Assembly: GCA_023265015.1 (NCBI GenBank)
Contig: JAHFUO010000012.1
Location: 1-57,693, forward strand
DNA length: 57,693 bases
DNA from: Acidobacteriota bacterium
Lineage (GTDB): Bacteria > Acidobacteriota > Vicinamibacteria > Vicinamibacterales > UBA2999
Direction of reading: 5' to 3'
Both the position numbers and the translations under genes were made by a program. The notes below the pieces were generated by a model that was given only the letters and a program-made list of their open reading frames with translations, did not search any database and was not told the DNA's origin. This document shows positions 2,637-52,871 of the stretch, in pieces. Positions within the stretch are counted from its first letter, which is position 1. Every line of letters starts with the position of its first letter.

Positions 2637-2637
2637 A

Positions 2638-3807: not shown

Positions 3808-3812
3808 CCTTT

Positions 3813-4221: not shown

Positions 4222-4622
4222 AGACGATTCTGGTCGACAGCAACGTCATTCTGGATGTGGCGACCAGCGACCCTACCTGGTTTTCGTGGTCGTCGCGCGC
4301 GCTGGCGGCCGCGGCCGATGACGCGGCGCTCGCGATCAACGCGCTGATCTACGCCGAGGTCTCTGTGGCATTTCGAAGAATCGAGGATCTCGAACAGAGC
4401 GTCCCGGCCTCGTTGTTCCAGCGTGAACCGCTCCCGTTCGAGGCCGCCTTCCTGGCGGGAAAGGCATTTCTCCGGTACCGGCGACATGGCGGGACGCGGA
4501 CATCGCCGCTGCCCGATTTCTACATTGGCGCGCACGCCGCGATTGTGGGGTGTCGCCTGCTGACGCGCGATCCAGTCCGCTATCGCACGTACTTCCCCAC
4601 GGTAGATCTCATCGCTCCTTGA
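4218..4622 (+). CDS. vapC: PIN-domain ribonuclease toxin (VapC-like)
   Basis: ILVDSNVILD N-terminal acidic motif, later LLTRD. 4-nt overlap with vapB. Confidence 0.9.
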   Translation: MKTILVDSNVILDVATSDPTWFSWSSRALAAAADDAALAINALIYAEVSVAFRRIEDLEQSVPASLFQREPLPFEAAFLAGKAFLRYRRHGGTRTSPLPDFYIGAHAAIVGCRLLTRDPVRYRTYFPTVDLIAP

Positions 4623-4720
4623 CGTTCAGCACAGGGGCGGCCGCCCGGCTGCGGCAACGGCCCCCATCACCGTCGTCCTGAACTGGGACGCGGCGCTCCC
4701 GAAGTGAAAGGTTATAAGCC

Positions 4721-4907
4721 GGTTCTCAGGTTGCTTTGGTGCTTGGGTGCTCGGGTTCCGGTGCTCGGGTTCACGGGAACGCTCGTTCACTGGAAGGTTC
4801 TCACGTTCTGCCAGCAAGAAGTGAACCGATGAACGACCCGAGCACCTTGAACCCGAGTACCAGCGAACTGGAACCCAAGCACCCGAGCACCAGAGCAACC
4901 CTAGAAC
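4721..4907. repeat. oligomer-array hairpin, family A (about 187 bp; GGTGCTCGGGTTC-type units; termini GGTTCTCAGG...CCCTAGAAC)
   Basis: Left arm ggttctcaggttgctttggtgcttgggtgctcgggttccggtgctcgggttcacgg. Right arm ...gaacccgagtaccagcgaactggaacccaagcacccgagcaccagagcaaccctagaac is complementary. Fills the convergent spacer between vapC and the methyltransferase. Confidence 0.8.
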
Positions 4908-4911
4908 TGGC

Positions 4912-5595
4912 CTAGTCCTTTATACAAGTCACCAGCGACCAGAGCCTCGGGAAGTTGACCTTCTTGATCGAGATCGGCTGAAGGCCTGCCTGCGCGAGGA
5001 AGCCGGGAAGGTCGAGATCCGACTTGAAGCCGAGGTGGACGGTGAACGGCGAAATCGCGCGCTCGAAGCGCGAGAAGATCGGGCTCGCGCTGCGGAAATG
5101 ATTCAGGACGATGATCTTTCCGCCGGGCCGGCAGACGCGGCGCATCTCCTTCACGACCTGCACGGGATCGGGCACCACGCTGATCAGGTACGGCGCGTAG
5201 ACGATGTCGAACGAGTCGTCCGCGAACATCATGTGCGACGCATCCATCTCGAGCAGGCGGATATTGCGCAGCCCCTTCTGCTCCACGCGATCGCGGCCCT
5301 TGTCGAGCATGGAGGCCGAAAAATCGATGCCGGTGACGTGACAGTTGCGCGGGTAGAGCGCGGCGTTGATGCCGGTTCCGAAGCCGGTCTCGAGGATCCG
5401 ATCCCCCGGAGCGATGCCCATGTGTTCGATGGCGACGAGCCGGCCGTGGTGCAGCGTCGGGCCGAACCACAGGTCGTACCAGCACGCCTGCTTTGCGTAC
5501 ACCCGCGCCATGAAATCGGTTTCGACAGCGGTCACCGACAGTGCGCGCGTCGCAGCGTCTGATCCGAAATCGTCGTCTTCGCGGTCGAACAGCAT
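4912..5595 (-). CDS. class I SAM-dependent methyltransferase (phospholipid N-methyltransferase/UbiE-like)
   Basis: SAM-binding ILETGFGTG motif. Typical 227-aa size. Confidence 0.8.
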   Translation of the reverse strand: MLFDREDDDFGSDAATRALSVTAVETDFMARVYAKQACWYDLWFGPTLHHGRLVAIEHMGIAPGDRILETGFGTGINAALYPRNCHVTGIDFSASMLDKGRDRVEQKGLRNIRLLEMDASHMMFADDSFDIVYAPYLISVVPDPVQVVKEMRRVCRPGGKIIVLNHFRSASPIFSRFERAISPFTVHLGFKSDLDLPGFLAQAGLQPISIKKVNFPRLWSLVTCIKD

Positions 5596-5723
5596 TCTGG
5601 TTGGCCTCCGGGAGGGCGGCTGTCCGAGCCTTCGTGTGAGGCGTGAAGTCCACCGACAGCGAAGCGGACCGCGCGACTATAGCGTTGTCAGGTGTGGATG
5701 GACAAGCCCCGATTTGCCTAGAT

Positions 5724-5807
5724 CAGTTGTCAGTTGCCCGTAGTCAGCTCTCAGTCGTGTTCCGCTTGGGATCGAACTGAGAACTGGCCACTGGGAACTG
5801 AAAACTG
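5724..5807. repeat. oligomer-array hairpin (7-nt period, CAGTTGT / reverse-complement AACTG units)
   Basis: Left cagttgtcagttgcccgtagtcagctctcagtcg. Right cgaactgagaactggccactgggaactgaaaactg (imperfect reverse complement). Confidence 0.75.
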
Positions 5808-9530: not shown

Positions 9531-9626
9531 ATTGACGGATTTACGAATCTACGAATTGACGAATTTGGATTCTTCGATTTCAATTCCAATTCGAATCCGT
9601 AAATTCGTAAATTCGTAAATTCGTCC
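9531..9626. repeat. oligomer-array hairpin, family B (8-nt period, TTACGAAT/ACGAATTG units)
   Basis: Left gacggatttacgaatctacgaattgacgaatttggattc. Right gaatccgtaaattcgtaaattcgtaaattcgtc. Occupies the whole 97-nt kinase/regulator spacer. Confidence 0.85.
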
Positions 9627-10415
9627 ATGCCAGGGTTACGCGTATTGGTCGTCGATGATGAGCAGCTCGCGCGCGAGGAGCTGTGTTATCAGCTCGAACA
9701 GCTGGGCAACGCCGAGGTCGTGGCGCAGGCCGGCAACGGGCTCGAAGCGATTGCCGCCGTCGAGCGGCACGAGCCGGACCTCGTGTTTCTCGATATCCAG
9801 ATGCCGGGGCTCACGGGCTTCGAGGTGGCGCGGCGCCTCCTCGAGCGCGACGAGGAGTCGCCCGCGCTGATCTTCGTCACGGCGTTCGATCAGCACGCGA
9901 TCGAAGCGTTCGAGGTGAACGCCGTCGATTACCTGCTGAAGCCGGTCGATGCGTCACGGCTCGAACAGGCGCTGCAACGGGCTCGAAAACGGCTCAGCTC
10001 GGAGCGGCCTCCCGGCAGCGCCCCGCTGAACGATCAGCTCGAGCGCATCGTCAAAATGATGGCCGGCCGGCAGGTCCGCCGCGAGCAGGTGGCGGTCAAG
10101 GTTGGCGAGCGGTTCCTGCTGGTCCAGGCCGACGACATCATCTATGCCTCGCTGGCCGACGAGTCGATTAACATAGTGACAGGCCAGGTAGCCGGAACCT
10201 CCAATCATCGGACGTTGGACGATCTGCAGGCGCGGCTCGACCCGGACGTGTTCTGGCGGGTCCACCGGTCGCACCTGGTCAACATCAACAAGATCAAGGA
10301 GATAGTCCCCTGGTTCAGCCGGAATTACATCCTGAGGATGAAAGACGCGAAGAGCACGGAGATCCCGGTCAGCCGCTCGCAGACGAAACGGCTCCGGGAG
10401 TACCTGAAGCTGTAG
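9627..10415 (+). CDS. LytTR/AlgR-family response regulator
   Basis: Receiver domain (VLVVDDE, LVFLDIQMPGL) and a LytTR DNA-binding C-terminus (RVHRSHLVNINKI). Confidence 0.9.
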   Translation: MPGLRVLVVDDEQLAREELCYQLEQLGNAEVVAQAGNGLEAIAAVERHEPDLVFLDIQMPGLTGFEVARRLLERDEESPALIFVTAFDQHAIEAFEVNAVDYLLKPVDASRLEQALQRARKRLSSERPPGSAPLNDQLERIVKMMAGRQVRREQVAVKVGERFLLVQADDIIYASLADESINIVTGQVAGTSNHRTLDDLQARLDPDVFWRVHRSHLVNINKIKEIVPWFSRNYILRMKDAKSTEIPVSRSQTKRLREYLKL

Positions 10416-14236: not shown

Positions 14237-14263
14237 TAGAGGCGGCGACCTCACCGCCACGCG

Positions 14264-14304
14264 AAAATCCCAAATCCCAAAGCCCAAATCCCAAACCTCA
14301 ATAG
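14264..14304. repeat. one-armed heptamer array (AAATCCC units) ending CAATAG (right flank of the island)
   Basis: aaaatcc caaatcc caaagcc caaatcc caaacct caatag. Contains the stop codon of the convergent dehydrogenase gene. Confidence 0.75.
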
Positions 14305-16523: not shown

Positions 16524-18502
<1,979 letters not shown>

Positions 18503-18506
18503 ATAT

Positions 18507-19667
18507 GTGACCGGTCCAACCACGAAAGCACGAAGACTTCGAAGGTCACGAACGTACATTTGGTTGTTCGTGGTCTTCGGGATTTTCGTGTCTTCGTGGT
18601 CTGGACAGAACAGTGTCGGTGCCCAGACCGCCGCGCGCCGGCTGACCACGCTCGACGCCCTCCGCAGGTTCTCCGGCTACTTTCATCTCCAGTACGTCGT
18701 CCTGCGCGGCGAGTTCGCCGAAGCGGGCACTCGCGTCGTCTTCCGCGGCGGCGACAACGAGATGCAGGTCATGCTGAACGACGCGAGCGCAACGCCGGGG
18801 CCGGTCGAAATGCGCGCGCAGTTGATCGATGTCGGGCGCCTCACAACTACCGACCCGCGGCTCGCGCGCTACGAGAATCGTCCCGACCCTGAGCACTGGC
18901 CGATGCCCGGCGATGAGCTGCTGCTCAGCGTCTCCAGCGTCGCCAGCGCGGAGCCGACCGCGACACCCACGATCCGCGCGCTGACGCTCGAGCCATGGCG
19001 CTTCGAGGGGCAGTCCGTGACGGTGACCGGCCAGTTCGGAGGACGCAACCTGTTCGGCGATCTCCCGGCGGCGCTGGCGAAAGACAAATACGATTTCGTG
19101 CTGCGCGGCACCGAAGGCGCCGTGTGGGTGACCGGACTCCGGCCGAAGGGCAAGGGGTTCGATCTGAATGTCGACGCGCGGGTCGACACGAATCACTGGG
19201 TCGAGGTGACAGGCACCGTCAAGCGCGAACGCGGACTGGTCATGCTGCAGGCCCGGACGATCGTCGCGGCGTCGGCGCCCGCGAGAAAGGTGGTCATCGA
19301 GGAGGCGCCACCACCACCGAAAGAACCCGGCGAGGTCGTCTTCAGCTCGCCTACTGATGGTGAGACGGACGTGTCCGCCGGCAGCCCCATCCGCGTGCAG
19401 TTTTCACGCGGCATCGATCCGCCGACGCTCACCGGGCATCTGCGAATCGGCTACGTGGGGGCTCCGCCGGCAGCGGCATCGGGTCCGCCGGCGACAATCG
19501 AGGTGCGGACGTCCTATGACTTCGGTACGCGGGCAGTGGAGATCAAGTTCTCGAAGCCGCTCGAGGCGTACCGGACGGTGAAGGTGGAACTCCTCGACGG
19601 CGTAAAAACCTTCGACGGCGCGCCCATCAAGCCCTGGACGCTGACCTTCTCCGTCGGCGCGAATTAG
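18507..19667 (+). CDS. hypothetical secreted protein with a C-terminal Ig-like (SbsA_Ig-type) domain
   Basis: ORF from GTG 18507. Predicted signal peptide TKARRLRRSRTYIWLFVVFGIFVSSWSGQNSVGA. C-terminal VVFSSPTDGETDVSAGSPIRVQFSRGIDP Ig-like motif. Start uncertain. Confidence 0.6.
   Translation: MTGPTTKARRLRRSRTYIWLFVVFGIFVSSWSGQNSVGAQTAARRLTTLDALRRFSGYFHLQYVVLRGEFAEAGTRVVFRGGDNEMQVMLNDASATPGPVEMRAQLIDVGRLTTTDPRLARYENRPDPEHWPMPGDELLLSVSSVASAEPTATPTIRALTLEPWRFEGQSVTVTGQFGGRNLFGDLPAALAKDKYDFVLRGTEGAVWVTGLRPKGKGFDLNVDARVDTNHWVEVTGTVKRERGLVMLQARTIVAASAPARKVVIEEAPPPPKEPGEVVFSSPTDGETDVSAGSPIRVQFSRGIDPPTLTGHLRIGYVGAPPAAASGPPATIEVRTSYDFGTRAVEIKFSKPLEAYRTVKVELLDGVKTFDGAPIKPWTLTFSVGAN
18518..18600. repeat. 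oligomer-array hairpin, family C
   Basis: Left aaccacgaaagcacgaagacttcgaaggtcacgaacg. Right ttgttcgtggtcttcgggattttcgtgtcttcgtggt. Lies inside the predicted 5' end of the next CDS. Confidence 0.8.
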
Positions 19668-20531: not shown

Positions 20532-22688
20532 TCAGGGCACGAGCTGGAACGCGGTCACCTGCTTCACGCCGTCCAAGGTCGTCTCTATCGCGTAGTCGCC
20601 CGGCGCGAGCGCAGCGAGCGAGGCGTCCGCGACGATCCAGCGGAACGGATTCGTCAAGTCCTGCCTGTCGCTCACCTCCACGGGTATAAGGTTCGGCCGT
20701 CCCAGGCGATCGAGCATCCGCGCCGTCGCAACCCCTCTCGATCGAGTCGGCAGCTCAACGCGAATCCGATCACTCCTCGGAAAACGTGGATCGGCGGTCA
20801 TCAGGTATCTCGGGCCCGTTGACGGCCCCCGCCGCCACAGGATCCCGTCTCCGAGCACAGGCAGGTCGGACGGGACGACCACACGGGCCGTGCCGGTCAC
20901 CGGCAGCCCGTCCTGGTTGTTCGGGCGAAGACGCACGCGAACCGCGTATTCGCCCGGCTTGAGCCCGGCCTCTGGAGCCTGCACCGTGAATGACGTGTCG
21001 GTGGCGGGAATATCGATCGTCTGTGACGCGATCTCGCGTCCGTCCGCCCCGACGACCGTCACATCAGCCGTCCCTCCTGCGGTCCACGCGATCTCCCTGC
21101 GCGTGCGGTAGTCCAACTCTCCTACAACCCACAACGTCGCCGCCGCCTCCTCACCCGTGCGCGCGGCCGCCGTGCGGATGCGGAACGTGGCGCTCGGGCT
21201 GACGGCCGCCACCGTGCCGAACGCGGCATTGACCCCTTCCCTCGCGCTGCCGCCCGGGTTCAGGACGTCCTCCACCGTCACCCCTCGATAGCCGCGCCGC
21301 GTGCGAATGGTCACGCCGGGGCGCAGCGATCGAACGGTGATGGATCTGAACTTCCCGTCAAGCTTGCCGTTGGTCGAACGATAGCCAAGCAGGTCGTACG
21401 AGTTCATGTCGGCCGAAATACGTCCTATTGCGGCATCTATCGCGCTGCTGCTCATGACGGACATGCCGTCGGTATTCCCCGCCAGCTGGCGCATCGCATC
21501 AAGGCGCGACGCCGGATCGCTCTCCTCGTTCGCGACGGCTGCTGGCGGCTTGCCATTCGGTGTCTGGTCGGCAGCGAGGCCCCGCGCGTAAATCGTGTAG
21601 AAGGATGCGACGACACGGTTCGCGGCATCGGCAATCCGATCGAGCCGCAGCGAATCGTCGAGCGCCGCCAGCGTCAGCCGGTCGGCCTCACACTCGGTGC
21701 GCAAGACGCCGCCCACTTCCTGGCCCCGGCCATCACCGTTGTCGCCGCCGGGCGCGTTGCCGCCTCCACCCTGGCCTCCGCCGGCCTGGCCTCCGCCGCC
21801 CTGGCCTCCGCCGCCTGCACCCCCGCGACCGCCGCCGGGAAATCCACCGCGTCCGCCGCCGCCTCCACCGCCTCCTCCGCCACCACCGCCACCACCGCCA
21901 CCGCCGCCTCCGCCACCGCCGCCGCCAACGCCCCCGAAGCCGCCGCGATTGGTCGTCTGGCTGTTACCGAGCCTCGAAGTCGGCCCGAACAGCCGCCAGC
22001 CGTCGGTGAGCGTGATGATCGCCGTCCGTCCCTCGTGTCCGGCCGCCAGCAAGGACATCAGGCGCTCGAGTGCATCGAAGGTCGCTTTTTCGCGATGGCG
22101 CTCCTGCATCTCGCTTGCGACGGCGCGGTACTGATTCGCCGGAAAGCACTGAGCGTACCGATCCTCCTTCGGATCGCGTGAGCCGACGCGGGCGCGATCC
22201 CAGGTTGCTTCGTCCTGCATGATCGCGGAGATCGCCGACGCCTTGCCACCGAACTGGATGTTGGCGGGCGTCATGTCCGGCGTCATCACGCCAACCACGT
22301 CGTCATCGTCGAGGAGACGATCGAGAAACCGCGCGAGCGGCAGCCGCACGTCGCGCGCGCCCTCGAACTGCATGTGGGCGGTATCGAGGAAGATCACGAA
22401 AGAGCGCGCGTCGGCATTGACGTGCTGGAAGGTCTCGATCTTCTGAGGAACGTTGTCCTCGCTCACGTCGACGTCCGACGCGGCAAGGTCGCGGACCGGA
22501 CGGCCCTCCTGCGTCGCGTGCATGTCGAGACGGATCAGTGAGGGCGCATCGGCCGCGGCGGTCTTCGTGTCCGGAGCAGATGTTTGCGAGGTTTGAGCGC
22601 TGAGCGCTTTGCCGTAGTGTCCGCCTTCAGGCGGACCACTCAGGAGCGCAAGGCAGACGACGACCGCGAAAAGCAGGCGAGCGCGCAT
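20532..22688 (-). CDS. VWA-domain protein of the VWFA-related acidobacterial type, with an internal Gly-rich segment
   Basis: Signal peptide MRARLLFAVVVCLALL. N-terminal VWA-like fold (SFVIFLDTAHM..., VGVMTPD). Resembles the TIGR03436-type family as I recall it. Start trimmed to ATG 22688. Confidence 0.8.
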   Translation of the reverse strand: MRARLLFAVVVCLALLSGPPEGGHYGKALSAQTSQTSAPDTKTAAADAPSLIRLDMHATQEGRPVRDLAASDVDVSEDNVPQKIETFQHVNADARSFVIFLDTAHMQFEGARDVRLPLARFLDRLLDDDDVVGVMTPDMTPANIQFGGKASAISAIMQDEATWDRARVGSRDPKEDRYAQCFPANQYRAVASEMQERHREKATFDALERLMSLLAAGHEGRTAIITLTDGWRLFGPTSRLGNSQTTNRGGFGGVGGGGGGGGGGGGGGGGGGGGGGGGGRGGFPGGGRGGAGGGGQGGGGQAGGGQGGGGNAPGGDNGDGRGQEVGGVLRTECEADRLTLAALDDSLRLDRIADAANRVVASFYTIYARGLAADQTPNGKPPAAVANEESDPASRLDAMRQLAGNTDGMSVMSSSAIDAAIGRISADMNSYDLLGYRSTNGKLDGKFRSITVRSLRPGVTIRTRRGYRGVTVEDVLNPGGSAREGVNAAFGTVAAVSPSATFRIRTAAARTGEEAAATLWVVGELDYRTRREIAWTAGGTADVTVVGADGREIASQTIDIPATDTSFTVQAPEAGLKPGEYAVRVRLRPNNQDGLPVTGTARVVVPSDLPVLGDGILWRRGPSTGPRYLMTADPRFPRSDRIRVELPTRSRGVATARMLDRLGRPNLIPVEVSDRQDLTNPFRWIVADASLAALAPGDYAIETTLDGVKQVTAFQLVP
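21714..21950 (-). repeat. low-complexity GGN-codon tract encoding about 79 aa of Gly/RGG-rich sequence
   Basis: NRGGFGGV-(G x about 25 by my codon count)-RGGFPGGGRGGAGGGGQGGGGQAGGGQGGGGNAPGGDNGDGRG. Confidence 0.85.
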
Positions 22689-24206: not shown

Positions 24207-24379
24207 GTGTCCCCCGTAGCAGGAAGAATGATGGTAGGGCCGGTGTCGAGCCGGTAACTGCGACGACAAGTATAGCCCACCTGCCCGAGATCAGCAACGA
24301 AAAACGCCCGAAAAATGGGTGTTTTGGTCGGTTTGTCTGACTGCTGCACGGAATGACGCTTTTGGTGGGGTGTCCTCAT

Positions 24380-24410
24380 CCCGAATCCCGAATCCCGAAT
24401 CCCGAATCCC
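24380..24410. repeat. (CCCGAAT)4CCC heptamer array, non-coding copy
   Basis: Four perfect tandem units immediately 3' of the ATP-grasp gene stop. Identical to the array inside uvrA. Confidence 0.9.
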
Positions 24411-24415
24411 GAGAC

Positions 24416-25435
24416 TCAGGCCCGGGAGGTTGTGAGCTCGACGATCTCTTCGATCAACTGGCTATAGGTGCGTCCGGCCTTCCTGGCGGCCATCGCGAAC
24501 TCCGCACGGGAGCTGAGCCAGGGGTTTGGGTTGACTTCGATCACGTGCAGGCCGCCATCGGGCTTCAGGCGCATGTCGACGCGCCCGTAATCCCGAAGTT
24601 CGAGTGCCTGGTAGGCTGCGACCGCCGTCTGCTGAAGACTGGCGATCGTTTCTTCGCTCAGGTCGGCTGCGATCGCCGACTTCGTGTCGCGATACGCCTT
24701 GGTCCCCTTGCCCCATTTCACTTGCGCCGCCGCGATTCGCGGTGTGCCATCGGGGAGCTTGGAGAGATCGAGCTCGACGACCGGCAGCGGCTCGGGCTTG
24801 TCGTTCCCGAGGATGCCGACATACATCTCGCGGCCGTCGATGTATTCCTCGATGAGGACGGGCGAATCGAAGTTGGCGTGCAGCCAGTCCATCCGCTCCA
24901 TCAGCTCCCGAATCGAGTTGACCACCGCGCTGAACTCGATGCCGATCGAGCCATCCTCGCGCGCCGGCTTCACGATCACGGGAAACTGCAGGTCGTGGGA
25001 GAAATCGAGCCGGCCGCGATACGACTTCGCGAACGTCGGGGTGTGGATGCCGTGAAACGCGAAGATCTTCTTCGCGATGGCCTTGTCCTGCGCGAGCATC
25101 AGGCCGTGCGTCCCTGACCCGGTGTATTTCTTCCCGATCAGCTCGAGAAAGCCCGCGATCTTGAAGTCCGCGGTGTCATCGTCGGCAAACGACTCGCAGA
25201 GATTGAACACGAGATCGCAGTCGACACGCGCCAGCCCGAGCAGGCTTTTCGTGGTGCCGTCGATCTCGTACAGCACCGGCTCGTGACCGAGCTTCGTGAG
25301 CGCCTCGGCCACCTCTTCTTCGACTTCCTTCTTGTCGAGCGTGCGGACGACCGGCGCCTTGTCGCCGGCAGCGGCCTCCTCGCTCTCGTCAACGAGCACG
25401 CGGTCGTACAGGACGACGATCTTGAGTCTGCCCAT
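24416..25435 (-). CDS. D-alanine--D-alanine ligase-family ATP-grasp enzyme
   Basis: ATP-grasp layout (…LAQDKAIAKKIFAFHGIHTP…, PVIVKPAREDGSIGI, EVNPNPWLS). Confidence 0.75.
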   Translation of the reverse strand: MGRLKIVVLYDRVLVDESEEAAAGDKAPVVRTLDKKEVEEEVAEALTKLGHEPVLYEIDGTTKSLLGLARVDCDLVFNLCESFADDDTADFKIAGFLELIGKKYTGSGTHGLMLAQDKAIAKKIFAFHGIHTPTFAKSYRGRLDFSHDLQFPVIVKPAREDGSIGIEFSAVVNSIRELMERMDWLHANFDSPVLIEEYIDGREMYVGILGNDKPEPLPVVELDLSKLPDGTPRIAAAQVKWGKGTKAYRDTKSAIAADLSEETIASLQQTAVAAYQALELRDYGRVDMRLKPDGGLHVIEVNPNPWLSSRAEFAMAARKAGRTYSQLIEEIVELTTSRA

Positions 25436-25452
25436 CGTGAAGTGCGGTGTAG

Positions 25453-25474
25453 GGGCGGGTCTTAAGACCCGCCC
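25453..25474. other. perfect 22-nt GC-rich palindrome in a 318-nt divergent spacer
   Basis: gggcgggtctt|aagacccgccc. Confidence 0.6.
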
Positions 25475-25753
25475 GTGTACCTACTCACAATACCAGCCGC
25501 GGGCGTCGATCGGCATTCCGTTCTAGCTCGCCGATACGAAGCCGCAGAAACTCGAGAAGACGGCCGACGCGCTCGAGACGACCCCTGGCTGAGGACAATG
25601 AACGCGCGTCGAGCGGGGCCACGAGCGATAAGAGGTACCTAGAACCAGTAAGATCACCAAAACATTTGATTGTGGGCACTTAGGTGCCGGTTTAGTCAAA
25701 CCTGCGGTCGATGTGCGGTATCCTCTGTCCCGCGTATCTTGCGCTCACCCCAC

Positions 25754-39267: not shown

Positions 39268-39855
39268 CTATTTGGTGCCCTTGTGCATCATCGGCACCTT
39301 CAGATCGGCGAGCTTGCCGATCATGTCCTCAGCGGAGGTCTCCGGCTTCACGGTCTTCTCGATGTACGAAATCTTCCCGCCCTTGTCGATGTAGAACGTC
39401 CAGCGGTTTGCGGTGCCGCGCTCGTTGAGCACGCCGTACGCTTTCGCGATTTCCTTCGTGGGGTCGCTCAGCAGCGGGAAGTCCGCTTCCTTCTTTTCGA
39501 CCACCACCGCGTTCGCACCCTGGCCAAGCGTCACCGACTTGGCCTTCGCAAACTCGGTGTTCTTCTCGATTGGATCGACGCTCGACATGAAATAGCTCAC
39601 GTCGTACATCTTGATCTTGTCGCCGTTCTCCGCCAGCGACTTGCACTCGATCGTGCAGCCGCGGGTAAACGCCGCCGGGAACCAGGCGAGGACGACCGCC
39701 TGCTTGCCCTTGAAGTCCGTCAACTGATAGGTCTTCCCGTCGGTCGCCTGCAGCTTGAAGTTCGGCGCCTGGTCGCCGACCTTGAGATCCGCCGTCTGGG
39801 CCATGGCCGCAGTCGCCAGGCCGAACACGAGACTTGCCGTCAGCAATACACGCAT
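39268..39855 (-). CDS. secreted peroxiredoxin/redoxin (AhpC-TSA/Bcp-like)
   Basis: Signal peptide and [16 protein letters not shown] active-site region. Confidence 0.8.
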
Positions 39856-39903
39856 CTGTCAACCTCCTGGGTTGAAAAGCTTGAGTATACAGTAGTACCC
39901 AGG

Positions 39904-42810
39904 ATGCCCGAGTCCATAAAGCCGTCCCGTGGTCCGCTCATCGTTCGCGGCGCGCGCACGCACAACCTGAAGAACGTCGACGTCACGCTGCCGAATGGCA
40001 AGCTCGTCATCTTTACCGGCGTGAGCGGGTCGGGCAAGTCGTCGCTTGCCTTCGACACGATTTACGCCGAAGGCCAGCGCCGCTACGTCGAATCGCTCTC
40101 CGCCTATGCCCGGCAGTTCCTCGAGCGGATGGAGAAGCCGGACGTCGACAAGATCGAGGGCATCTGCCCGGCGATCGCGATCCGCCAGAAGAACAGCGTT
40201 CGCAACCCGCGCTCGACGGTCGGCACGACCACTGAGATCCACGACTACATGCGCCTGCTCTACGCGCGCGTCGGCCGGACGTTCTGCCGGCAGTGCGGGC
40301 AGGAGGTGATTCGCGAGACGGCTGAGATCGTGGCGAGGCGGCTGGCCGACCTGCCGGTCGACACGCGCGTGCTGATCGGATTTCAGATCCCCGTTGTCGC
40401 GATGTCGGCTGCCCCGGCGAAGGACGCGGGCGGCGACCCAGACGCGTCCGACGAGCTGTTCGAAACGGAGCAGGACGGGGATCCGATTGCCGAGACGCTC
40501 GACGGTCTGCAGCGCCGCGGCTACGCCCGCCTGTTGATCGACGGGCGCGCGGTGACGTTCGACGAGATCGATCGTGCCGCACTCGATGACAGGACCACGC
40601 TCGACGTTGTCCTCGATCGCGTGAAGATTGAAGGCGACCTGCGCAGCCGCCTGACGGATTCGATCGAGACGTCGTATCGCGAGGGCGGAGGAGCGGCCTT
40701 TGCGATCGTGCTCCCGAATCCCGAATCCCGAATCCCGAATCCCCACAGGATCGAGTTCTCAGAGCGTTTCGAGTGCAGAAGCTGCGGGATCGCCTACGAG
40801 ACCCCGCAACCGCGGCTCTTCTCCTTCAACAACCCATTCGGCGCCTGCCCGACGTGTCACGGCTTCGGCAACATCATCGAGCTCGACATGGACCTGGTGA
40901 TCCCGGACCAGTCGAAATCGATCATCGAGGGCGCGATCGAGCCGTGGAGCAAGCCGCACTATCGATCGCAGCTGGCCGAATTGAAGCGCGCCGCGCGCAA
41001 GTCGGCCGTCCGCCTCGACGTGCCGTGGTCGGAGCTGACCGACGACGAGCGGAGGTTCGTGATCGAGGGCAACGATGCCTACGACGGCATCCGCGGATTT
41101 TTCCGCTGGCTCGAGCGCAAGAAATACAAGGTGCACGTCCGCGTGTTCCTGAGCCGCTATCGCAGCTATCTTGCCTGTCCCGATTGCGGCGGCGCGCGCC
41201 TTCGCCGCGAGGCGCGTGACGTCCGCGTGGGCGATCGGACGATTGACGCCGTCTCGGCGCTCACCGTCCGCGAGGCGCAGGCGTTCTTCTCGGAGCTCAA
41301 GCTGTCGGAAAAGGAGTCGACGGTTGCTGACAAGGTCCTGCGCGAGATTCGCCGCCGGCTTTCTTTCCTGAGCGACGTCGGCCTCGACTACCTGACGCTC
41401 GATCGCCTGTCGTCGACGCTGTCGGGCGGCGAGTCGCAGCGCATCAACCTGGCGACCTCGCTCGGCTCCGCGCTCGTCGGCACGCTGTATGTGCTGGACG
41501 AGCCGTCGATCGGCCTGCACTCGCGCGACAACAGGCGGCTCATCGACATCCTTCAACAGCTTCGTGACCAGGGGAACACCGTGCTGGTCGTCGAGCACGA
41601 CGAGGACATGATTCGCGTCGGCGATCACATCGTCGACATCGGCCTCGGCGCCGGCGAGCAGGGCGGCAAGGTCGTCTACTCGGGCGACTACGCGGGATTG
41701 CTCCAGGAGCCGCGGTCGCTCACGGCGAAGTACCTGCGCAACGAGCTCGCGATCCCCGTGCCGTCGCCGCGGCGCAAGGGGCTCGCGCAGAAGATCCGGC
41801 TCACGGGCGCCAGCGAGCACAATCTCAAGGACATCGACATCGAGGTTCCGCTGAACGCGCTGACGTGCGTCACGGGTGTGAGCGGATCGGGGAAGTCGAC
41901 GCTGGTGCACGACGTGCTCTACGCCGCGATCAAGCGGGCCAAGGGCGACTGGGATCGCCGCGTCGGCGCCTTCCGCGAGCTGCATGGGCTCGAGTACATC
42001 ACGGACGTCGTGCTGGTCGATCAGACGCCGATTGGCCGCACCCCGCGATCAAACCCGGTGACCTACCTCAAGGCGTTCGATCCGATCCGCGAGCTGTTTG
42101 CGTCCACGAAGGACGCCCGCGCGCGCGGCCTGACCGCCAGCCACTTCTCCTTCAACGTGCCCGGCGGGCGCTGCGAGGCGTGCCAGGGCGAAGGCGTGGT
42201 GCGCGTGGAGATGCAGTTCCTGGCCGACGTGTTCGTGCCGTGCGAGCAGTGCGACGGCATGCGCTTCAAGTCGCAGGTCCTCGAGGTGCGTTACAAGGGC
42301 AAGAGCGTGCACCAGGTGCTCGAGATGACGGTGCGCGAGGCGTTGACCTTCTTCGGCACGTCTCCGAAGGTACTGCGGCGGCTGCAGGTGCTCGACGAAA
42401 TCGGCCTCGGCTACCTCCGCCTCGGTCAGCCGGCGACGACGCTGTCAGGAGGGGAGGCGCAGCGAATCAAGATCGCGGCGCACCTGGCGTCGTATGGCGG
42501 CGAGCGATTGCTGTACATCCTCGACGAGCCGACCACGGGCCTTCACTTCGACGACATCGCGAAGCTTCTGGCCGCGTTCAAGAAGCTGGTCGAGGCCGGC
42601 CACACGCTGATCGTCATCGAGCACAACCTCGATGTGATCAAGACCGCCGACTACGTCATCGATCTCGGTCCCGAGGGGGGCGACGGGGGCGGCGAGGTGA
42701 TTGCCACGGGCACGCCAGAGCAGATCGTGCAGGTGGAGGCATCGTTTACCGGTCAGGCGCTGCGTCAGGTGCTCGCGGCCGGCAGAGCCAATGCCTACGC
42801 GACCCGATAG
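39904..42810 (+). CDS. uvrA: excinuclease ABC subunit A
   Basis: [18 protein letters not shown]..., [34 protein letters not shown], two ABC modules, zinc fingers. ORF 39121..42810 trimmed to ATG 39904. Confidence 0.97.
40713..40743 (+). repeat. (CCCGAAT)4CCC heptamer array inside the uvrA coding sequence
   Basis: ctC CCG AAT CCC GAA TCC CGA ATC CCG AAT CCC Cac, translated [10 protein letters not shown]. Identical to 24380-24410. Confidence 0.95.
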
Positions 42811-43540
42811 GTCGGCGGGTCCGCTTCGCGTTACCCGCAGTACCCGCCCCACATCGCACAGATCGTACGTGGGCCGGGTGCCGCGTAGCGGACCCGGCAT
42901 CCTACCTCGCGATTTTTACGAGCGCCCCACGCTCGTCGTCGCCGAAGAGCTGCTCGGGAAAGTGCTCGTGACTCGCACGCGCCAGGGCACGACCTCTGGC
43001 GTCATCGTCGAGACCGAGGCGTACATCGGCGAAGACGATCCCGCGTGCCACGCGTCATTGGGCCGCACCGCGCGCAACGAGCCGCTCTACGGTCCTCCAG
43101 GCGTCGCCTACGTCTATCTGAACTACGGCGTCCACTACCTCGTGAACGCGGTAACGGAAGCCGACGGCCACCCGGCCGCCGTGCTCATTCGCGCGCTCGA
43201 GCCAATCGAAGGGATCGCGCTGATGAAGAAGCGGCGCGCGGCCGAGGGCCGGATCATCGACGAAGCGGATCTCTGTCGCGGCCCCGGCAACCTGACGCGC
43301 GCGCTGGGCATCACGCTGGCCGACAACCGGCACGATCTCACCCTTCGACCGCGCTCAGGGCAGGCCCTTCGACTACGCTCAGGGCAGGCCGGCCGCACGC
43401 TCCGGATCGAGGACCACGGCATATTGATCGGCGAAGTCGCGCGAGGGCCACGCATCGGGATTCGCGTTGGCGTCGACCGGCCCTGGCGCTGCTGGATCGA
43501 CGGACATCGGTCGGTGTCCGCGCACCAAAGAAAAAAGTGA
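42791..43540 (+). CDS. mpg: DNA-3-methyladenine glycosylase (AAG/Mpg family)
   Basis: FYERPTLVVAEELLGKVLV..., IVETEAYIGEDDPACHA, GVAYVYLNYGVHYLVN, CRGPGNLTRALGI. Start uncertain (ATG 42791, GTG 42869/42878). Confidence 0.8.
   Translation: MPTRPDRSAGPLRVTRSTRPTSHRSYVGRVPRSGPGILPRDFYERPTLVVAEELLGKVLVTRTRQGTTSGVIVETEAYIGEDDPACHASLGRTARNEPLYGPPGVAYVYLNYGVHYLVNAVTEADGHPAAVLIRALEPIEGIALMKKRRAAEGRIIDEADLCRGPGNLTRALGITLADNRHDLTLRPRSGQALRLRSGQAGRTLRIEDHGILIGEVARGPRIGIRVGVDRPWRCWIDGHRSVSAHQRKK
43341..43388 (+). repeat. 24-nt tandem duplication (2 units, 2 mismatches) in frame within mpg
   Basis: cccttcgaccgcgctcagggcagg / cccttcgactacgctcagggcagg, translated LRPRSGQA LRLRSGQA. Confidence 0.9.
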
Positions 43541-45606: not shown

Positions 45607-45707
45607 AATTTACGAATCCACGAATTGACGAATTGACGAATTGGAATTTTCCATTGCATGGATCAATCCACATCCGTCAATTCGTAAGTTCGTCAATTCG
45701 TCAATTC
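45607..45707. repeat. oligomer-array hairpin, family B
   Basis: Left aatttacgaatccacgaattgacgaattgacgaattgg. Right ccgtcaattcgtaagttcgtcaattcgtcaattc. Spans from the leuD stop to (and including) the LysR stop. Confidence 0.85.
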
Positions 45708-46588
45708 TGTTTCCGCTTCTCTTCCACCGAGGCGAGAAATGCCGCCGAGGCGTGTGACCGTTCTCCTCCCTTTCTGAATACGAGGCGCACCTGCCGCCGC
45801 AGCCGGATCTCCGGCACCGGCAGCGCCACCAGCTCGCCGCGCGCGATCTCGGACTCGGCGCATCGCCGCGGCAGCAGCGCCACCCCCATGTTGGTCGCCA
45901 CCGCGCGCTTGATCCCTTCAAGGCTCGGCAGCGACACGAGGATGTTTGCCGGGATGTGATGCTGCTCGAAGAGGCGCAGCACCCGGTCGCGCACATGCGA
46001 CGGATCGTTGTGCGCAATCACGGGGTGGCGTCCGCACTCCGCGAGGGTGACTTCCCTGTTGTGCGCGAGCGTGTGGGTCGGAGGAACCAGCATCACGAGC
46101 TCGTCCTGGCCGAGGACGATCGTGCTGAGCCGCGGCTCCGACGGCTGAAACGTCAGGACACCGAAATCAAGCGTCCCCTGCGCGACCTCGGCGCCAATCT
46201 GCCGCGCCGGGATGCGCCGGACATCGACGTGCACGAGCGGATGGCTTTCCCGGAACCTGGCGATGAGCGGCAGGACGACGTGGACCGAGGCCTCGTTGGC
46301 GCCGATCAGCACGCGTCCACGGCGGAGGTCCCGAAGGTCCTTGACGGCGATCTCGGCTTCCTCGGACAGGCGCATGAGACGCTCGGCGAAGTCGTGCAAC
46401 AGGCGCCCGGCATCGGTCAGGGTGGCGTCCTTGGTGGCCCGATCGAACAGCCGCTCGCCCACGCTCTCCTCGAGGCGGCGAACCGCCTGGCTGACTGCCG
46501 GCTGAGTCCGGTGCAGCTTCATCGCTGCTCTGGAGAAGCTCCGTTCGGCCGCAACCCTGAGGAAAACGCGTAATTCGGCCAGTTCCAC
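45701..46588 (-). CDS. LysR-family transcriptional regulator
   Basis: MELAELRVFLRVAAERSFSRAAMKLHRTQPAVSQAVRRLE HTH. Divergent from the leuA-like gene. Confidence 0.9.
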   Translation of the reverse strand: MELAELRVFLRVAAERSFSRAAMKLHRTQPAVSQAVRRLEESVGERLFDRATKDATLTDAGRLLHDFAERLMRLSEEAEIAVKDLRDLRRGRVLIGANEASVHVVLPLIARFRESHPLVHVDVRRIPARQIGAEVAQGTLDFGVLTFQPSEPRLSTIVLGQDELVMLVPPTHTLAHNREVTLAECGRHPVIAHNDPSHVRDRVLRLFEQHHIPANILVSLPSLEGIKRAVATNMGVALLPRRCAESEIARGELVALPVPEIRLRRQVRLVFRKGGERSHASAAFLASVEEKRKQN

Positions 46589-46611
46589 TGCTTCACCTTC
46601 TCATAAGCACC

Positions 46612-46692: not shown

Positions 46693-47940
46693 ATGGCACA
46701 ACACGTCCGAATCTTCGACACGACGCTGCGCGACGGCGAGCAGGCGCCCGGATTTTCGCTCCGGCCGGCCGAGAAGATTCTGCTTGCCCGTCAGCTGGAC
46801 GCGCTGGGCGTGGACATCATCGAAGCGGGCTTCCCGATTGCGTCCCCCGCGGACGCGGAAGCAGTGCGCCAGATCGCGCAGGACGTGCGCCGGCCGATCA
46901 TCGCGTGCCTCGCGCGTTGCCACCGCGCGGATCTCGAGAAGGCGGTGGAGGCTATTCAGCCGGCGGAGCGCGGCCGCATCCACACGTTCATCGCGACCTC
47001 CGATCTCCACCTGCAGGCGAAGCTGCGCATGACCCGCGAGCAGTGTCTCGAGGCGGCGATCGACGCGGTGCGCTATGCGCGCCAGCACACGTCCGACGTC
47101 CAGTTCTCCGCCGAAGACGCCACGCGGAGCGACGTGGATTTCCTCTGCCGCGTCGTTGAAGCCGTCATCAAGGCGGGCGCGACCACGATCAACCTGCCCG
47201 ACACGGTTGGCTACGCGACGCCCGATGAAATCCGCGACTTCTTCACGACCATCCGGACCCGCGTGCCGCACTCGGACGAGGTCGTGTTCAGCACGCACTG
47301 CCACGACGATCTCGGGCTCGCGGTCGCGAACTCGCTCGCCGCGGTGCAGGGGGGCGCGTACCAGGTCGAGTGCACGGTCAACGGCATCGGCGAGCGCGCG
47401 GGCAACGCGTCGCTCGAAGAGATCGTGATGGCCTTCACGGTTCGCCAGGATTGCCTGCCGTATTCAACCGGCGTCGACACGCGCCTGATCTATCCGTCGA
47501 GCGAGATGCTGACCCGGCTGACCGGGGAGAGCGTCCAGGCGAACAAGGCGATCGTCGGCCGCAACGCCTTCGCGCACGAAGCGGGGATCCACCAGGACGG
47601 CATGATGAAGGATCGCCGCACCTACGAGATCATGCGCGCCGAAGACGTGGGCGCGCCGTGGAACCCGCTGGTCCTCGGCAAGCACTCGGGGCGTCACGCA
47701 GTGCAGCACCGGTGCCGGGAGCTCGGCCTGCAGGTTGAGGCCGGCGAGCTCATCGAGGTGTATCGCGCGTTGATGGTGATCGCGGACGAGCGGAAGATCA
47801 TCACGGACAGCGACGTCACGGCCGTCGTCAGCTCGGTCCGCTCGGGGCCGTCGCCGCGCCACGAGCCGGTCGATCCGTTCGATACGCCGTCGACCACGGT
47901 GAGCGCGATGCATCCCTCCGGCTACGGACACGGCGTGTAG
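46693..47940 (+). CDS. 2-isopropylmalate synthase / homocitrate synthase family enzyme, short form
   Basis: IFDTTLRDGEQAPGF, HCHDDLGLAVANSLAA HMGL-like domain. About 415 aa, with no recognisable LeuA C-terminal regulatory domain. Start at ATG 46693. Confidence 0.85.
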   Translation: MAQHVRIFDTTLRDGEQAPGFSLRPAEKILLARQLDALGVDIIEAGFPIASPADAEAVRQIAQDVRRPIIACLARCHRADLEKAVEAIQPAERGRIHTFIATSDLHLQAKLRMTREQCLEAAIDAVRYARQHTSDVQFSAEDATRSDVDFLCRVVEAVIKAGATTINLPDTVGYATPDEIRDFFTTIRTRVPHSDEVVFSTHCHDDLGLAVANSLAAVQGGAYQVECTVNGIGERAGNASLEEIVMAFTVRQDCLPYSTGVDTRLIYPSSEMLTRLTGESVQANKAIVGRNAFAHEAGIHQDGMMKDRRTYEIMRAEDVGAPWNPLVLGKHSGRHAVQHRCRELGLQVEAGELIEVYRALMVIADERKIITDSDVTAVVSSVRSGPSPRHEPVDPFDTPSTTVSAMHPSGYGHGV

Positions 47941-47941
47941 T

Positions 47942-48021
47942 CGGTTGGTGGATGGTGGTTTGCGGTTGGTGGACCACGAACCAGCATCCACTAACCACCA
48001 ACCACCAACCACTAACCACCC
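47942..48021. repeat. oligomer-array hairpin (7-nt period, GGTTGGT / ACCAACC units)
   Basis: Left cggttggtggatggtggtttgcggttggtgg. Right cactaaccaccaaccaccaaccactaaccaccc. Includes the mscS stop and its last two Gly codons. Confidence 0.8.
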
Positions 48022-49103
48022 TTGTCCAGCGTCACGATCATCCGGCCGGTCGGCGGAGCGATCCCGCGCTCGGCGAACACCTTCGCGATCCTCTTTCGCA
48101 GCTCGCGTCCCACGAGCCACTGCTTCAGCGGCACGGTCTTGATGCGCGCCTTCAGCACGAGCTGTCCCTGGTCGAACGCGTCGACACCGTAGACATCCAG
48201 CGGCTCGAGGATGTGCGGCCTGAACGCCGGGTCGCTCATCAGCGTCGCGGCGGCGTCGCGCATCGCCGCCATCACCCGCTCAGGGTCATCGTTGTAGCCA
48301 ATCCCGAATGTGATCACGTAGTACGAGAAATCCTTCGACTTGTTGGCGAGCGTCTTCACCTCGCCGTTCGGGAAGACGTGGACCGTGCCTTCCTCGTCAC
48401 GCAGCACGGTCGTGCGGAGGTTGACCTCCTCGACGAGCCCGCCCTGGCCGTTGACGACCGCCACGTCGCCGACCCGGACCTGGTCCTCGAGAATCAGGAA
48501 GAAGCCCGAGATCACGTCCCGGACGATCGTCTGCGCGCCGAATCCGATCGCGAGCCCCGCGATGCCGGCGCCCGTGAGCGCGGGCGTGATGTCGACGCGC
48601 AGCTCCCGCAGGATCATCAGCGCCGCGATGCCGACCACGAGGACCGACAGCGCCTTCTGGAGGAGCCGTCCCAGCGTCTGCGCGCGCTTGGTCCGCTCCA
48701 CGACGTTGAGGCCGGTGCCGCGGCTCATCTCGCGCTCGAAGCGCCGCGCGGCCGCGGACCCGATGCGGATGACGAAGTAGGCGCCGACGGCGATGATCGC
48801 GATCCGCAAGCCCGCGTCGAGGAACCACAGGACGAGCGCTTCCGGGCTGCCGCCAAATCGCGTCGGGTGGCCGGCGAGCGTCAGCGCCGGGAAGGCCAAC
48901 GCCGCTGCCGTCACGACGAAGATGACCAGCCGCACGACCCGGCGTGGCCGGTCGACGAACAGCGCTTCGACGTCGCGATCTTCGATGATGGCGCGCAGGA
49001 TGGATTGGACGGCGCGCGCGACGATGTCGGCGACGAGATAGGCGACGAGCAGCGCCAGCGCGAGCGCCAGCGTCATTTCAGGCCAGTGGGGGGAGAGGTT
49101 CAC
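48012..49103 (-). CDS. mechanosensitive ion channel (MscS family)
   Basis: TM helices plus the MscS beta-domain pattern (GDVAVVNGQGGLVEEVNLRTTVLRDEEGTVHVFPNG). GTGA overlap with htrA. Confidence 0.85.
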   Translation of the reverse strand: MNLSPHWPEMTLALALALLVAYLVADIVARAVQSILRAIIEDRDVEALFVDRPRRVVRLVIFVVTAAALAFPALTLAGHPTRFGGSPEALVLWFLDAGLRIAIIAVGAYFVIRIGSAAARRFEREMSRGTGLNVVERTKRAQTLGRLLQKALSVLVVGIAALMILRELRVDITPALTGAGIAGLAIGFGAQTIVRDVISGFFLILEDQVRVGDVAVVNGQGGLVEEVNLRTTVLRDEEGTVHVFPNGEVKTLANKSKDFSYYVITFGIGYNDDPERVMAAMRDAAATLMSDPAFRPHILEPLDVYGVDAFDQGQLVLKARIKTVPLKQWLVGRELRKRIAKVFAERGIAPPTGRMIVTLDKGG

Positions 49104-51320: not shown

Positions 51321-51407
51321 AACCGCGAAGACCACGAAAACCGCGAAGGTCACGAAACAAACCTTTAGAATATTTCGTGTGCTTCGAGATCTTCGTGATT
51401 TCGTGGT
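51321..51407. repeat. oligomer-array hairpin, family C
   Basis: Left aaccgcgaagaccacgaaaaccgcgaaggtcacgaaac. Right atttcgtgtgcttcgagatcttcgtgatttcgtggt. Confidence 0.8.
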
Positions 51408-51417: not shown

Positions 51418-52065
51418 ATGGACGTAGTCCGGCACCAACCCAATCAGGGCTGGATTGAAGTCATCGTCGGCAGCATGTTCAGCGGCAAGAGCGAAGAGCT
51501 GATTCGCCGCCTGCGCCGCGCGCAGATCGCGCGCCAGAAGGTCCAGATCTTCAAGCCGACGGTCGACACCCGGTACGCCGACGACGATATCGTCTCCCAC
51601 AGCGACATGCGGATCTCCTCTCGCGCGGTCAGCACCTCGCGCTCGCTGCTGGACCTGGTCGAGACGGACACCGAGGTCGTCGGGATCGATGAGGGGCAAT
51701 TCTTCGACCAGGAGCTGCCGGCCGTGTGCAACGAGCTTGCGGATCGCGGCACACGCGTCATCGTGGCGGGCCTCGACCAGGATTATCTCGGCAAGCCGTT
51801 CGAGCCGATGCCGCAGCTGCTCGCGATCGCCGAGTACATCACCAAGACCCTCGCGATCTGCATGGTGTGCGGCAACCCCGCCAATCACACGCAGCGCCTC
51901 GTGTCGAGCGGCGACCGCGTGCTCCTCGGCGCGCAGGGCACCTACGAGGCGCGCTGTCGTGCCTGTTTTGATCCGAGCCTTGCGGGTGTACCGGCAAAGC
52001 CCAAATCCCACGCCCCAACAGAGGCCCGATCCCCGATCCCCAATCCCCGATCCCCGAAGGTGTAG
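51418..52065 (+). CDS. tdk: thymidine kinase
   Basis: [13 protein letters not shown]-loop, IDEGQFF, C-terminal CMVCG...CRAC zinc motif. The last 13 or so codons run through a heptamer array. Confidence 0.9.
52025..52059. repeat. one-armed heptamer array (CCCGATC units), C-rich on + strand
   Basis: cccgatc cccgatc cccaatc cccgatc cccgaag, preceded by aaagcccaaatccc. Confidence 0.8.
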
Positions 52066-52633: not shown

Positions 52634-52634
52634 G

Positions 52635-52871
52635 GGTTCTCGGGTGCACGGGTGCACAGGTGCACGGGTTCGGTTCACGGGTTCACGGGTGCACGGGTTC
52701 ACGGGTTCGGTTCACGGGTTCACGTTGACGGGACCCTGGTTGAAGGGTGCTCGGGGCGGTTCAAGTTCTTCATTTGCATCGACTTCACGAACCCGAACCC
52801 CACCCGTGAACCTCGAACCCGAACCCTCGAACCGAACCCGTGCACCCGTGCACCCATGCACCCTGAGAACC
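52635..52871. repeat. oligomer-array hairpin, family A, largest copy (about 237 bp; termini GGTTCTCGGG...CCCTGAGAACC)
   Basis: Left arm is tandem GGGTGCAC/GGGTTCAC/GGGTTCGG octamers. Right arm is the reverse complement (gaacccgaac..., gtgcacccgtgcaccc). Ends 16 nt before the ku start. Confidence 0.85.

Follow-up and report, generated by a model that had tools for sequence, protein, structure and literature searches.

A heptanucleotide tandem array translated in a length-variable loop of UvrA from a Vicinamibacterales metagenome-assembled genome

Contig JAHFUO010000012.1 of the Acidobacteriota assembly GCA_023265015.1 (Vicinamibacteria, Vicinamibacterales, UBA2999) carries a uvrA gene, encoding excinuclease ABC subunit A, with a perfect array of CCCGAAT heptamers inside its reading frame. 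We analysed positions 1 to 57,693 of the forward strand (57,693 nt; hereafter the window), to which all positions refer unless another contig is named. Based on the comparison of this locus with those of its relatives, we suggest that the array is probably a tolerated, hypervariable and always-ON coding microsatellite located in a permissive loop of UvrA, and that frameshift variants are removed by selection. Outside the contingency loci of host-adapted pathogens, genes normally exclude tandem repeats with a unit length that is not divisible by three. In the order-level clade studied here, which comprises abundant bacteria of soil and groundwater, a core repair gene harbours a heptamer array and, in some relatives, a whole array hairpin. 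The site offers a natural experiment on the amount of inserted sequence that a UvrA loop can accept, and might serve as a very fast strain-typing marker for uncultured Vicinamibacterales.

The CCCGAAT array and its position in UvrA

In the uvrA frame, positions 40711-40746 read CTC CCG AAT CCC GAA TCC CGA ATC CCG AAT CCC CAC. The array is (CCCGAAT)4CCC at 40713-40743 on the plus strand, i.e. four perfect units (40713-40740) followed by CCC, and Tandem Repeats Finder delimited it at 40712-40743 (period 7, 4.6 copies, 100% matches). The letters, this program and the translation all bear out the initial annotation, which had described a (CCCGAAT)4 array read through all three codon phases. Ten residues are encoded, P271-P280 (after L270), and they lie 10 residues ahead of a zinc-finger segment. 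The CCCGAAT unit has no stop codon in any of the six frames, therefore the array can be translated through.

The tract is real and well above the chance level. With at most one mismatch allowed, CCCGAATCCCGAAT has 7 matches in the window versus 0.03 expected, a number reached by none of 100 shuffles. These matches are confined to three places: the uvrA tract, a non-coding array at 24378-24412 and one arm of a palindrome at 35227-35304. The array previously placed at 24380-24410 is indeed identical to that of uvrA, but proved slightly longer, (ATCCCGA)5.0 at 24378-24412. It lies 4 nt downstream of the stop codon of a minus-strand gene (24416-25480), has no inverted partner and forms no hairpin (z = +1.6). 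The two-arm palindromic version of the CCCGAAT unit family, reported at 35226-35295, is also present, as a GGGATTC-type arm (35227-35265) followed by a GAATCCC-type arm (35266-35304). However, it is degenerate and extends over 35227-35304, with arms 72-80% complementary (-26.3 kcal/mol, z = -5.0); it is situated upstream of the likely start of a major facilitator superfamily (MFS) transporter gene. Both loci support the view that the uvrA tract is a copy of an otherwise intergenic repeat. A comparison of the flanks of the uvrA and 24378 copies showed no similarity, and neither recognisable element ends nor target duplications were found for the single-arm arrays. No inverted partner accompanies the uvrA tract, and it forms no hairpin, as either strand folds no better than shuffled sequences (z = +1.3 and +0.3).

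The uvrA gene (39904-42810, plus strand) encodes a protein of 968 aa with the Pfam domains UvrA_inter and UvrA_DNA-bind. Its start was placed at 39904, because a longer mechanical open reading frame (ORF; 39121-42810) begins antisense across the tRNA-Thr gene at 39103-39178. The latter (tRNA-Thr (CGT), minus strand) is located between a dienelactone-hydrolase-like gene and an AhpC-like gene. Class I UvrA proteins have two ABC ATPase modules, UvrA interaction and DNA-binding domains, and three zinc modules. The window protein belongs among them: it matches PF17760, PF17755 and PF00005, aligns with the structure 3ZQJ at E = 1e-48, and its GSGKS motifs and CxxC pairs are invariant.

The CxxC pairs of the window UvrA are C128/C131 and C291/C294, which we take to flank the UvrB-binding domain and jointly to form zinc module 1, as in the structure of Bacillus stearothermophilus UvrA. 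In alignments with the PDB entries 3ZQJ, 3PIH and 2R6F, the array residues occupy the loop just ahead of the strand leading to the second CxxC. This loop has an equal length in UvrA of Mycobacterium tuberculosis (3ZQJ) and is 7 residues shorter in that of Thermotoga maritima (3PIH). An AlphaFold2 model of the full-length protein, built from 54 close orthologues, was poor overall (mean predicted local distance difference test score (pLDDT) 51.6, predicted template modelling score (pTM) 0.31), and only the local secondary structure round the array site was used. It predicts strands at residues 265-269 and 281-285 with the array residues as the turn between them, with pLDDT <50 at 275-277. The array would thus encode the turn of a beta-hairpin that closes off the UvrB-binding domain and precedes the second CxxC of zinc module 1. 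The earlier idea of a length-variable, tolerated surface segment is strengthened by the solved structures, by the predicted turn and by the orthologue alignment that had been proposed as a check, which was run and is described below.

Length variation and reading frame among relatives

The UvrA proteins closest to that of the window are 84-91% identical to it, and those with a source name come from metagenome-assembled genomes (MAGs) of Vicinamibacterales or Acidobacteriota. In an alignment of 120 such orthologues (84-91% identical), nearly all columns are conserved and two segments are the main exceptions. One is the array site, with 81 distinct variants; the scored segment spans 4-44 residues including three conserved flanking residues, and the inserts are ~1-41 residues long. 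They represent heptamer arrays translated in one or the other orientation, some with both hairpin arms, e.g. NPESRIPNP (unit CCCGAAT), DPGSRIPDP (CCCGGAT), DPRSPIPDP (GATCCCC), GDQGSGIRDQ (GGGATCA) and GDSGLGTGDS (GGGACTC). The DNA of related loci confirms this origin: other units at the site are CCCGGAT, GGGGATC, GGGACTC and CCCCAAT, and, in more distant relatives, CAGTCGT, CACGAGC, GTCACCG and GAGTCGG. The arrays of relatives are often degenerate, with 7- and 8-nt units mixed, and some relatives have merely 2-6 unrelated residues at this position. In contig L084, (CCGGGAT)4, a spacer and (TCCCGAG/TCCCGGA)9 form a full two-arm array hairpin in frame, and L085 and L108 resemble it, with both arms in frame inside uvrA. 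A protein-level motif was also considered and rejected, as the peptides change with orientation and unit while the 7-nt period of the DNA persists.

The second hypervariable segment (~residues 165-196; 40396-40491, plus strand) is a loop of the UvrB-binding domain with pLDDT <50 at 166-191. In many relatives it contains NPESRIPNP or DPGSRIPDP arrays (CCCGAAT/CCCGGAT), for instance at 1222-1251 of contig L081. The window allele has no array there.

Near-identical alleles differ at the array site, and the tract therefore appears to be slippage-prone, as had been suggested. The proteins P0059 and P0079 are separated by a 16-aa indel at the site, every other residue being identical; P0008 and P0009 differ there by 7 aa, and P0009 and P0012 by 12 aa, with otherwise identical residues. 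At the DNA level, contigs L161, L164 and L165 are 99.3-99.7% identical over 2.96 kb, where they differ by 9-22 substitutions. Their indels (15, 21 and 36 nt) fall without exception within the array and comprise whole units or unit pairs. L161 and L162 differ by 2 substitutions and have an unchanged array. According to a rough estimate, arrays of 8-12 units would undergo about one fixed in-frame event per 0.15-0.3% of gene divergence. Such a rate would be hundreds of times that of a single-nucleotide site, but phase variation has been measured at rates orders of magnitude higher.

The four nearest lineages (window, L169, L168 and L081; 85-91% nucleotide identity) have 4-5 units each in the same register, the unit being CCCGAAT in three of them and CCCCAAT in L168. 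Despite this unit turnover, they hold ~11-13 loop residues. The nearest relatives, 13-15% diverged, carry other units, while the four units of the window are perfectly homogeneous. The change of unit between these lineages, together with the perfect units of the window, therefore suggests concerted evolution and an active microsatellite. Long arrays avoid real genes: a search with (PNPESRI)6 matched only short hypothetical ORFs overlying intergenic arrays.

The frame arithmetic of the initial annotation holds. In simulations, 2, 3, 5 or 6 units gave UvrA truncated at aa 330-441, so that a change of one or two units shifts the frame, while 7 units (three added) remained in frame. The reading frame was scored on 72 loci that had been retrieved as DNA whether or not their ORF was intact, and 71 of them were in frame across the array site, the single frameshift being found in contig L027. 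For loci with arrays of at least 3 units, the proportion was nine of ten (binomial probability ~4e-4 if one third were in frame by chance).

We propose that the tract is a short heptanucleotide microsatellite with the unit CCCGAAT (family GGGRYYC). It is a member of a class of dispersed 7-9-nt arrays, which are abundant in the genomes of Vicinamibacterales and are mostly inverted pairs folding into long hairpins right at the 3' ends of genes. One such element may have settled long ago in the beta-hairpin turn of UvrA. This loop would accept almost any stop-free insert, and the CCCGAAT insert would simply be translated, presumably with a neutral effect. The resident array would then turn over by replication slippage, possibly with conversion from other arrays, which could account both for the in-frame indels (15, 21 or 36 nt) that separate near-identical strains and for the concerted unit changes between lineages. 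Frame-shifting changes would also arise and be purged by purifying selection, as intact UvrA would be needed. In the window allele, only the C-rich arm of 4 units, which forms no hairpin, seems to be left.

Several points weigh against this interpretation. The window units are perfect and relatives 13-15% away have other units, which points to recent slippage or conversion, and some routes of homogenisation would cross out-of-frame intermediates, as a switch would. Throughout an order-level clade, the same two loops of UvrA have retained arrays, which could be selected for and not merely tolerated. Moreover, all of the compared sequences are metagenome assemblies, in which repeat paths can be mis-assembled, the proteins retrieved by homology are biased to intact genes, and heterogeneity within populations was judged from k=31 unitigs only.

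A repair switch and other explanations

The initial annotation saw in the array a contingency locus, in which heptamer slippage toggles uvrA OFF and ON, and cells lacking nucleotide excision repair (NER) form damage-hypermutable subpopulations that are selected as bet-hedging. We consider this unlikely, even though the geometry described above suits such a switch. A tract is regarded as putatively phase-variable in silico from at least 3 units for 6-9-nt motifs, the cut-off of PhasomeIt-type screens (PMC5953494). At 4.6 units the uvrA tract exceeds this value, but is near the bottom of the range listed for heptamer tracts, which spans 3-26 units, and the mutability of long-unit tracts is poorly known (PMC5953494). 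The array site is by far the most variable part of uvrA among near-identical alleles, and the window units are kept perfectly homogeneous. Microsatellites of 6-7 bp are highly polymorphic in Xanthomonas, with 390 haplotypes in 568 strains (PMC8146439). Finally, in the L027 locus (3874-3904; long-read Acidobacteriota MAG MFD05176.bin.2.265), the uvrA frame changes inside a (GAGTCGG)n array, which represents either a real frameshifted allele or an assembly indel.

On the other hand, ON and OFF alleles were not seen to coexist as in a simple-sequence repeat (SSR) contingency locus: OFF alleles are nearly absent (71 loci in frame versus 1). A database search with two out-of-frame tails as bait retrieved 31 frameshifted uvrA fragments from long contigs. 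We rejected them as evidence of slippage, because their frame changes occur at many positions, often several per gene, which is consistent with noisy (long-read) assembly. Contraction alleles shortened by 7 or 14 nt (at most 3 units) were not found in the four runs that contain the strain (X1-X4), where the coverage of ~7x gives a low sensitivity; these data are Logan k=31 contigs and unitigs, which break at the 32-nt tract and in which expansions are invisible. The P0012 allele recurs unchanged in 8 contigs of different samples, and the estimated event rate, which concerns arrays of 8-12 units and not the 4 units of the window, is far below typical phase-variation rates. The degeneracy of the relatives' arrays, with their mixed units, also argues against a switch, as does the position of the tract at codon 270 of 968, away from the 5' end. 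The array has many counterparts in its genome-wide class, and nothing marks it as a dedicated switch. The loss of uvrA makes only a weak spontaneous mutator compared with the loss of mismatch repair. We obtained no positive evidence for the use of uvrA as a switch.

The contingency loci of Neisseria, Haemophilus and Campylobacter resemble the uvrA tract in being intragenic, with a unit that is not a multiple of three, a copy number above the cut-off and a length that varies by strain. In contrast to them, OFF alleles are absent among the uvrA relatives (bar L027), the tract is short and lies mid-gene, the product is a cytoplasmic repair enzyme and not a surface or restriction-modification function, and the repeat belongs to a genome-wide class. 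In Salmonella mutL, the copy number of an in-frame 6-bp repeat acts as a switch, as copy changes inactivate a functional motif. The uvrA case is similar insofar as a tandem repeat lies in a DNA-repair gene and copy changes could alter repair. However, UvrA apparently tolerates in-frame variants, and its inactivation would require a frameshift. Among the contingency loci named above, the Haemophilus influenzae hmw genes also have heptamer repeats (PMC8262952). The uvrA tract is a concrete candidate for repeat-mediated repair switching in environmental bacteria.

In a broader version of this idea, the array-hairpin family of Vicinamibacterales would be an undescribed one that is actively spreading and colonising coding loops, with the two uvrA arrays giving reversible NER-lacking, damage-hypermutable cells. 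If true, this would be a contingency locus of a free-living soil bacterium inside a repair gene. In E. coli, UvrA reportedly influences the stability of repeats, therefore a switch in uvrA could be self-referential. We regard this scenario as improbable.

It is still more doubtful that the array acts as a protein linker or rheostat, i.e. that a Pro/Glu/Ser/Arg-rich loop with in-frame length variation tunes UvrA-UvrB loading and is under selection. Arrays at two loops of the UvrB-binding domain across the clade, the loop length retained in the four nearest lineages despite unit turnover, and a loop as long as that of M. tuberculosis UvrA would all agree with this possibility. However, the peptide is not conserved (NPESRIP, DPGSRIP, GDQGSGIRDQ, GDSGLGT, SSVGQSSV or 2-6 unrelated residues). 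What is conserved is the 7-nt periodicity of the DNA with its CCC/GGG core, in any codon phase and either orientation, and the array residues are predicted to form a disordered turn.

A function at the DNA level, in which a G-quadruplex of (GGGATTC)4GGG in the template strand modulates uvrA transcription or replication, seems very unlikely. The four GGG-N4 repeats noted earlier on this strand are a canonical G3N4 quadruplex motif, GGGGATTC(GGGATTC)3GGG. The minus strand of 40713-40744, GGGGATTCGGGATTCGGGATTCGGGATTCGGG, has at least four G3 runs with 1-7-nt loops, as the sequence-based G-quadruplex motif rule prescribes. Seven of the eight canonical motifs in the window are tandem arrays, and the G-rich strand is the minus strand in all six single-arm arrays (8108, 14269, 23457, 24380, 40713 and 52025). 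GC skew is slightly negative in 9 of 11 5-kb bins, and the strand bias, in this small sample, could be a replication-strand bias. Against a quadruplex function, many relatives have no G3 runs at the site (CAGTCGT, GTCACCG) or no array, and most array families of the window (AATTGACG, CACGAAGnn, TCAGTTG) are unable to form quadruplexes. The motif is predicted from its letters, and Watson-Crick folding of either strand is, as stated, no better than for shuffled sequences.

We dismiss an assembly artefact, by which the array or its unit count would have been introduced by an assembler crossing a high-copy repeat: its 31-mers are common to hundreds of other loci, unitigs break there, and the contigs L024, L107, L108, L111 and L132 start 6-108 nt upstream of the FSERFEC anchor, i.e. 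at the site or shortly ahead of it, as expected because repeats break assemblies, but at least 14 independently assembled relatives have in-frame arrays at exactly the same codon position, unitigs of run X1 match both junctions (40300-40741 and 40716-40835) with zero mismatches, and ordinary short reads span the 32-nt tract.

Known repeat systems and the array class of the window

Two known systems are close to the uvrA case. Heptanucleotide arrays are the commonest long simple-sequence repeats (LSSR5-11) in large-genome free-living bacteria and are mostly intergenic (Mrazek et al. 2007, as summarised in PMC4679880). Related examples include the short tandemly repeated repetitive (STRR) heptamers of cyanobacteria, the TAACTGA repeats of Beggiatoaceae, and the 6-7-bp microsatellites used in Xanthomonas for multilocus variable-number tandem repeat analysis (MLVA) (PMC8146439). 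The window class agrees with this outline, as it consists of heptanucleotide arrays, many per genome, mostly intergenic and polymorphic in copy number; the uvrA tract is a perfect tandem array, and the indels confined to it are a copy-number polymorphism of this kind. Perfect intergenic arrays of the same unit also occur in [Pseudomonas] boreopolis ((CCCGAAT)15, contig L166, 1511-1612) and Vibrio campbellii ((CCCGAAT)14, contig L167, 1553-1655). CCCGAAT arrays are thus present in distant phyla; in these two species they are annotated as 67-aa hypothetical proteins. Unlike typical LSSR5-11, the window arrays are usually inverted pairs whose hairpins abut stop codons. Repeat units that are not a multiple of three are reported to be rare inside genes, whereas uvrA hosts them at two loops. 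Our literature search returned no paper pairing Vicinamibacter with tandem repeats or Acidobacteria with heptamer repeats, and the class appears to be undescribed for Vicinamibacterales or other Acidobacteriota.

The other system comprises the Rickettsia palindromic elements (RPEs), which are selfish repeats with a palindromic sequence that have inserted into protein-coding genes without disturbing the frame (Ogata et al. 2000, 2002, as summarised in PMC10969869). Like them, the uvrA repeat belongs to a dispersed, palindromic and elsewhere mostly non-coding family, and lies in frame in a housekeeping enzyme, where it is translated. The dispersal is seen in the CCCGAAT units at 24378 and 35227, and in the depth of 31-mers in four metagenomes, which is ~600-5200 over the uvrA array versus 3-10 over its flanks where these are covered, i.e. 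hundreds of times higher, with many different flanks. The insertion would be compatible with the fold, judging by the loop-length variation among the solved UvrA structures and the predicted turn. L084, L085 and L108 have a palindrome, with both arms, inside the gene, whereas the window allele is one-armed and has no hairpin. RPEs are ~150-bp elements of unique sequence that encode a conserved peptide. The uvrA arms, on the contrary, are 7-nt tandem arrays, and the insert is also a microsatellite that differs in length between near-identical strains and has no conserved peptide. By analogy, the uvrA case may join LSSR5-11 with an RPE-like insertion, in which the inserted palindrome is itself a microsatellite and the loop is hypervariable. 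It might therefore illustrate how selfish or structural repeats generate protein length variation outside Rickettsia.

The 57.7 kb of the window contain ~16 arrays of 7-9-nt units, 10 of which are inverted pairs. The three inverted pairs that were folded (35227, 3812 and 45607) are strong hairpins (z = -5.0 to -7.2). For nine array elements, i.e. eight hairpin pairs and a single array at 24374, the distance between their start and the stop codon of an ORF with high GC content at third codon positions is -14 to +17 nt. The eight hairpins are located at 3812-3899, 4732-4897, 5723-5807, 9531-9628, 18519-18602, 45607-45707, 47926-48027 and 51321-51405. In their arms, 7-9-nt units are repeated in tandem, the unit family differing from locus to locus, and the hairpin at 47926-48027 is placed between convergent genes. 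They look like a repetitive extragenic palindromic (REP)- or terminator-like repeat class built from microsatellites. No Rfam family matches any array, the tRNA being the sole match. A terminator scan did not call the array hairpins as classical intrinsic terminators, with one match within the 51321-51405 hairpin, so their possible role as terminator-like or mRNA-end hairpins is suggested by position only. The class breaks metagenome assemblies and causes start-codon mis-calls in these genomes.

The hairpin at 3812-3899, composed of CACGAAGnn 9-mer arrays, begins 5 nt past a stop codon (z = -7.2). It aligns over its whole length with those at 18519-18602 and 51321-51405, and the three are therefore dispersed copies of one element. 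The hairpin of AATTGACG / CGTCAATT 8-mer arrays at 45607-45707 (z = -5.3) lies at the 3' end of a minus-strand gene (45701-46600) and has a related copy at 9531-9628. A large hairpin (230 nt; 52634-52863) of GGGTTCAC / GTGAACCC 8-mer arrays separates tdk from a Ku-domain gene (non-homologous end joining, NHEJ). The Ku gene probably starts near 52899, in which case the long ORF that begins at 52569 would be a mis-call.

Apart from the uvrA tract, the only translated array of the window is (CCCGATC)4.7, of the GGGRYYC family (52021-52057, plus strand). It forms the last ~13 codons of the thymidine kinase (tdk) ORF, a tail that follows the end of the thymidine kinase domain (residue 184). A single (AAATCCC)4.4 array is found at 14262-14295, and AAATCCC recurs in L161 at 18128-18166 and 18243-18279. 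This contig shares the unit families AAATCCC, CACGAAGGA and CCCGAAT with the window, and has a hairpin array directly after its uvrA stop codon. The L161 region 18128-18279 is nested, with a CACGAAGGA-type hairpin within the loop of an (AAATCCC)5.6 / (TTGGGAT)5.3 array hairpin.

The gene order AhpC-like redoxin, uvrA, 3-methyladenine glycosylase, leuC, leuD and lysR is common to the window and its relatives, and the window matches a groundwater metagenome run. In the 3-methyladenine DNA glycosylase gene, a 24-nt tandem duplication of CCCTTCGACCnCGCTCAGGGCAGG (43341-43390, 2.1 copies) is in frame and reads RSGQALRLRSGQA; it looks like another repeat family translated within a repair gene. A long array with a 9/15/24-nt period and CCGCCGCCA-type units extends over 21770-21944, and its putative reading is poly-Pro or poly-Gly, depending on the strand.

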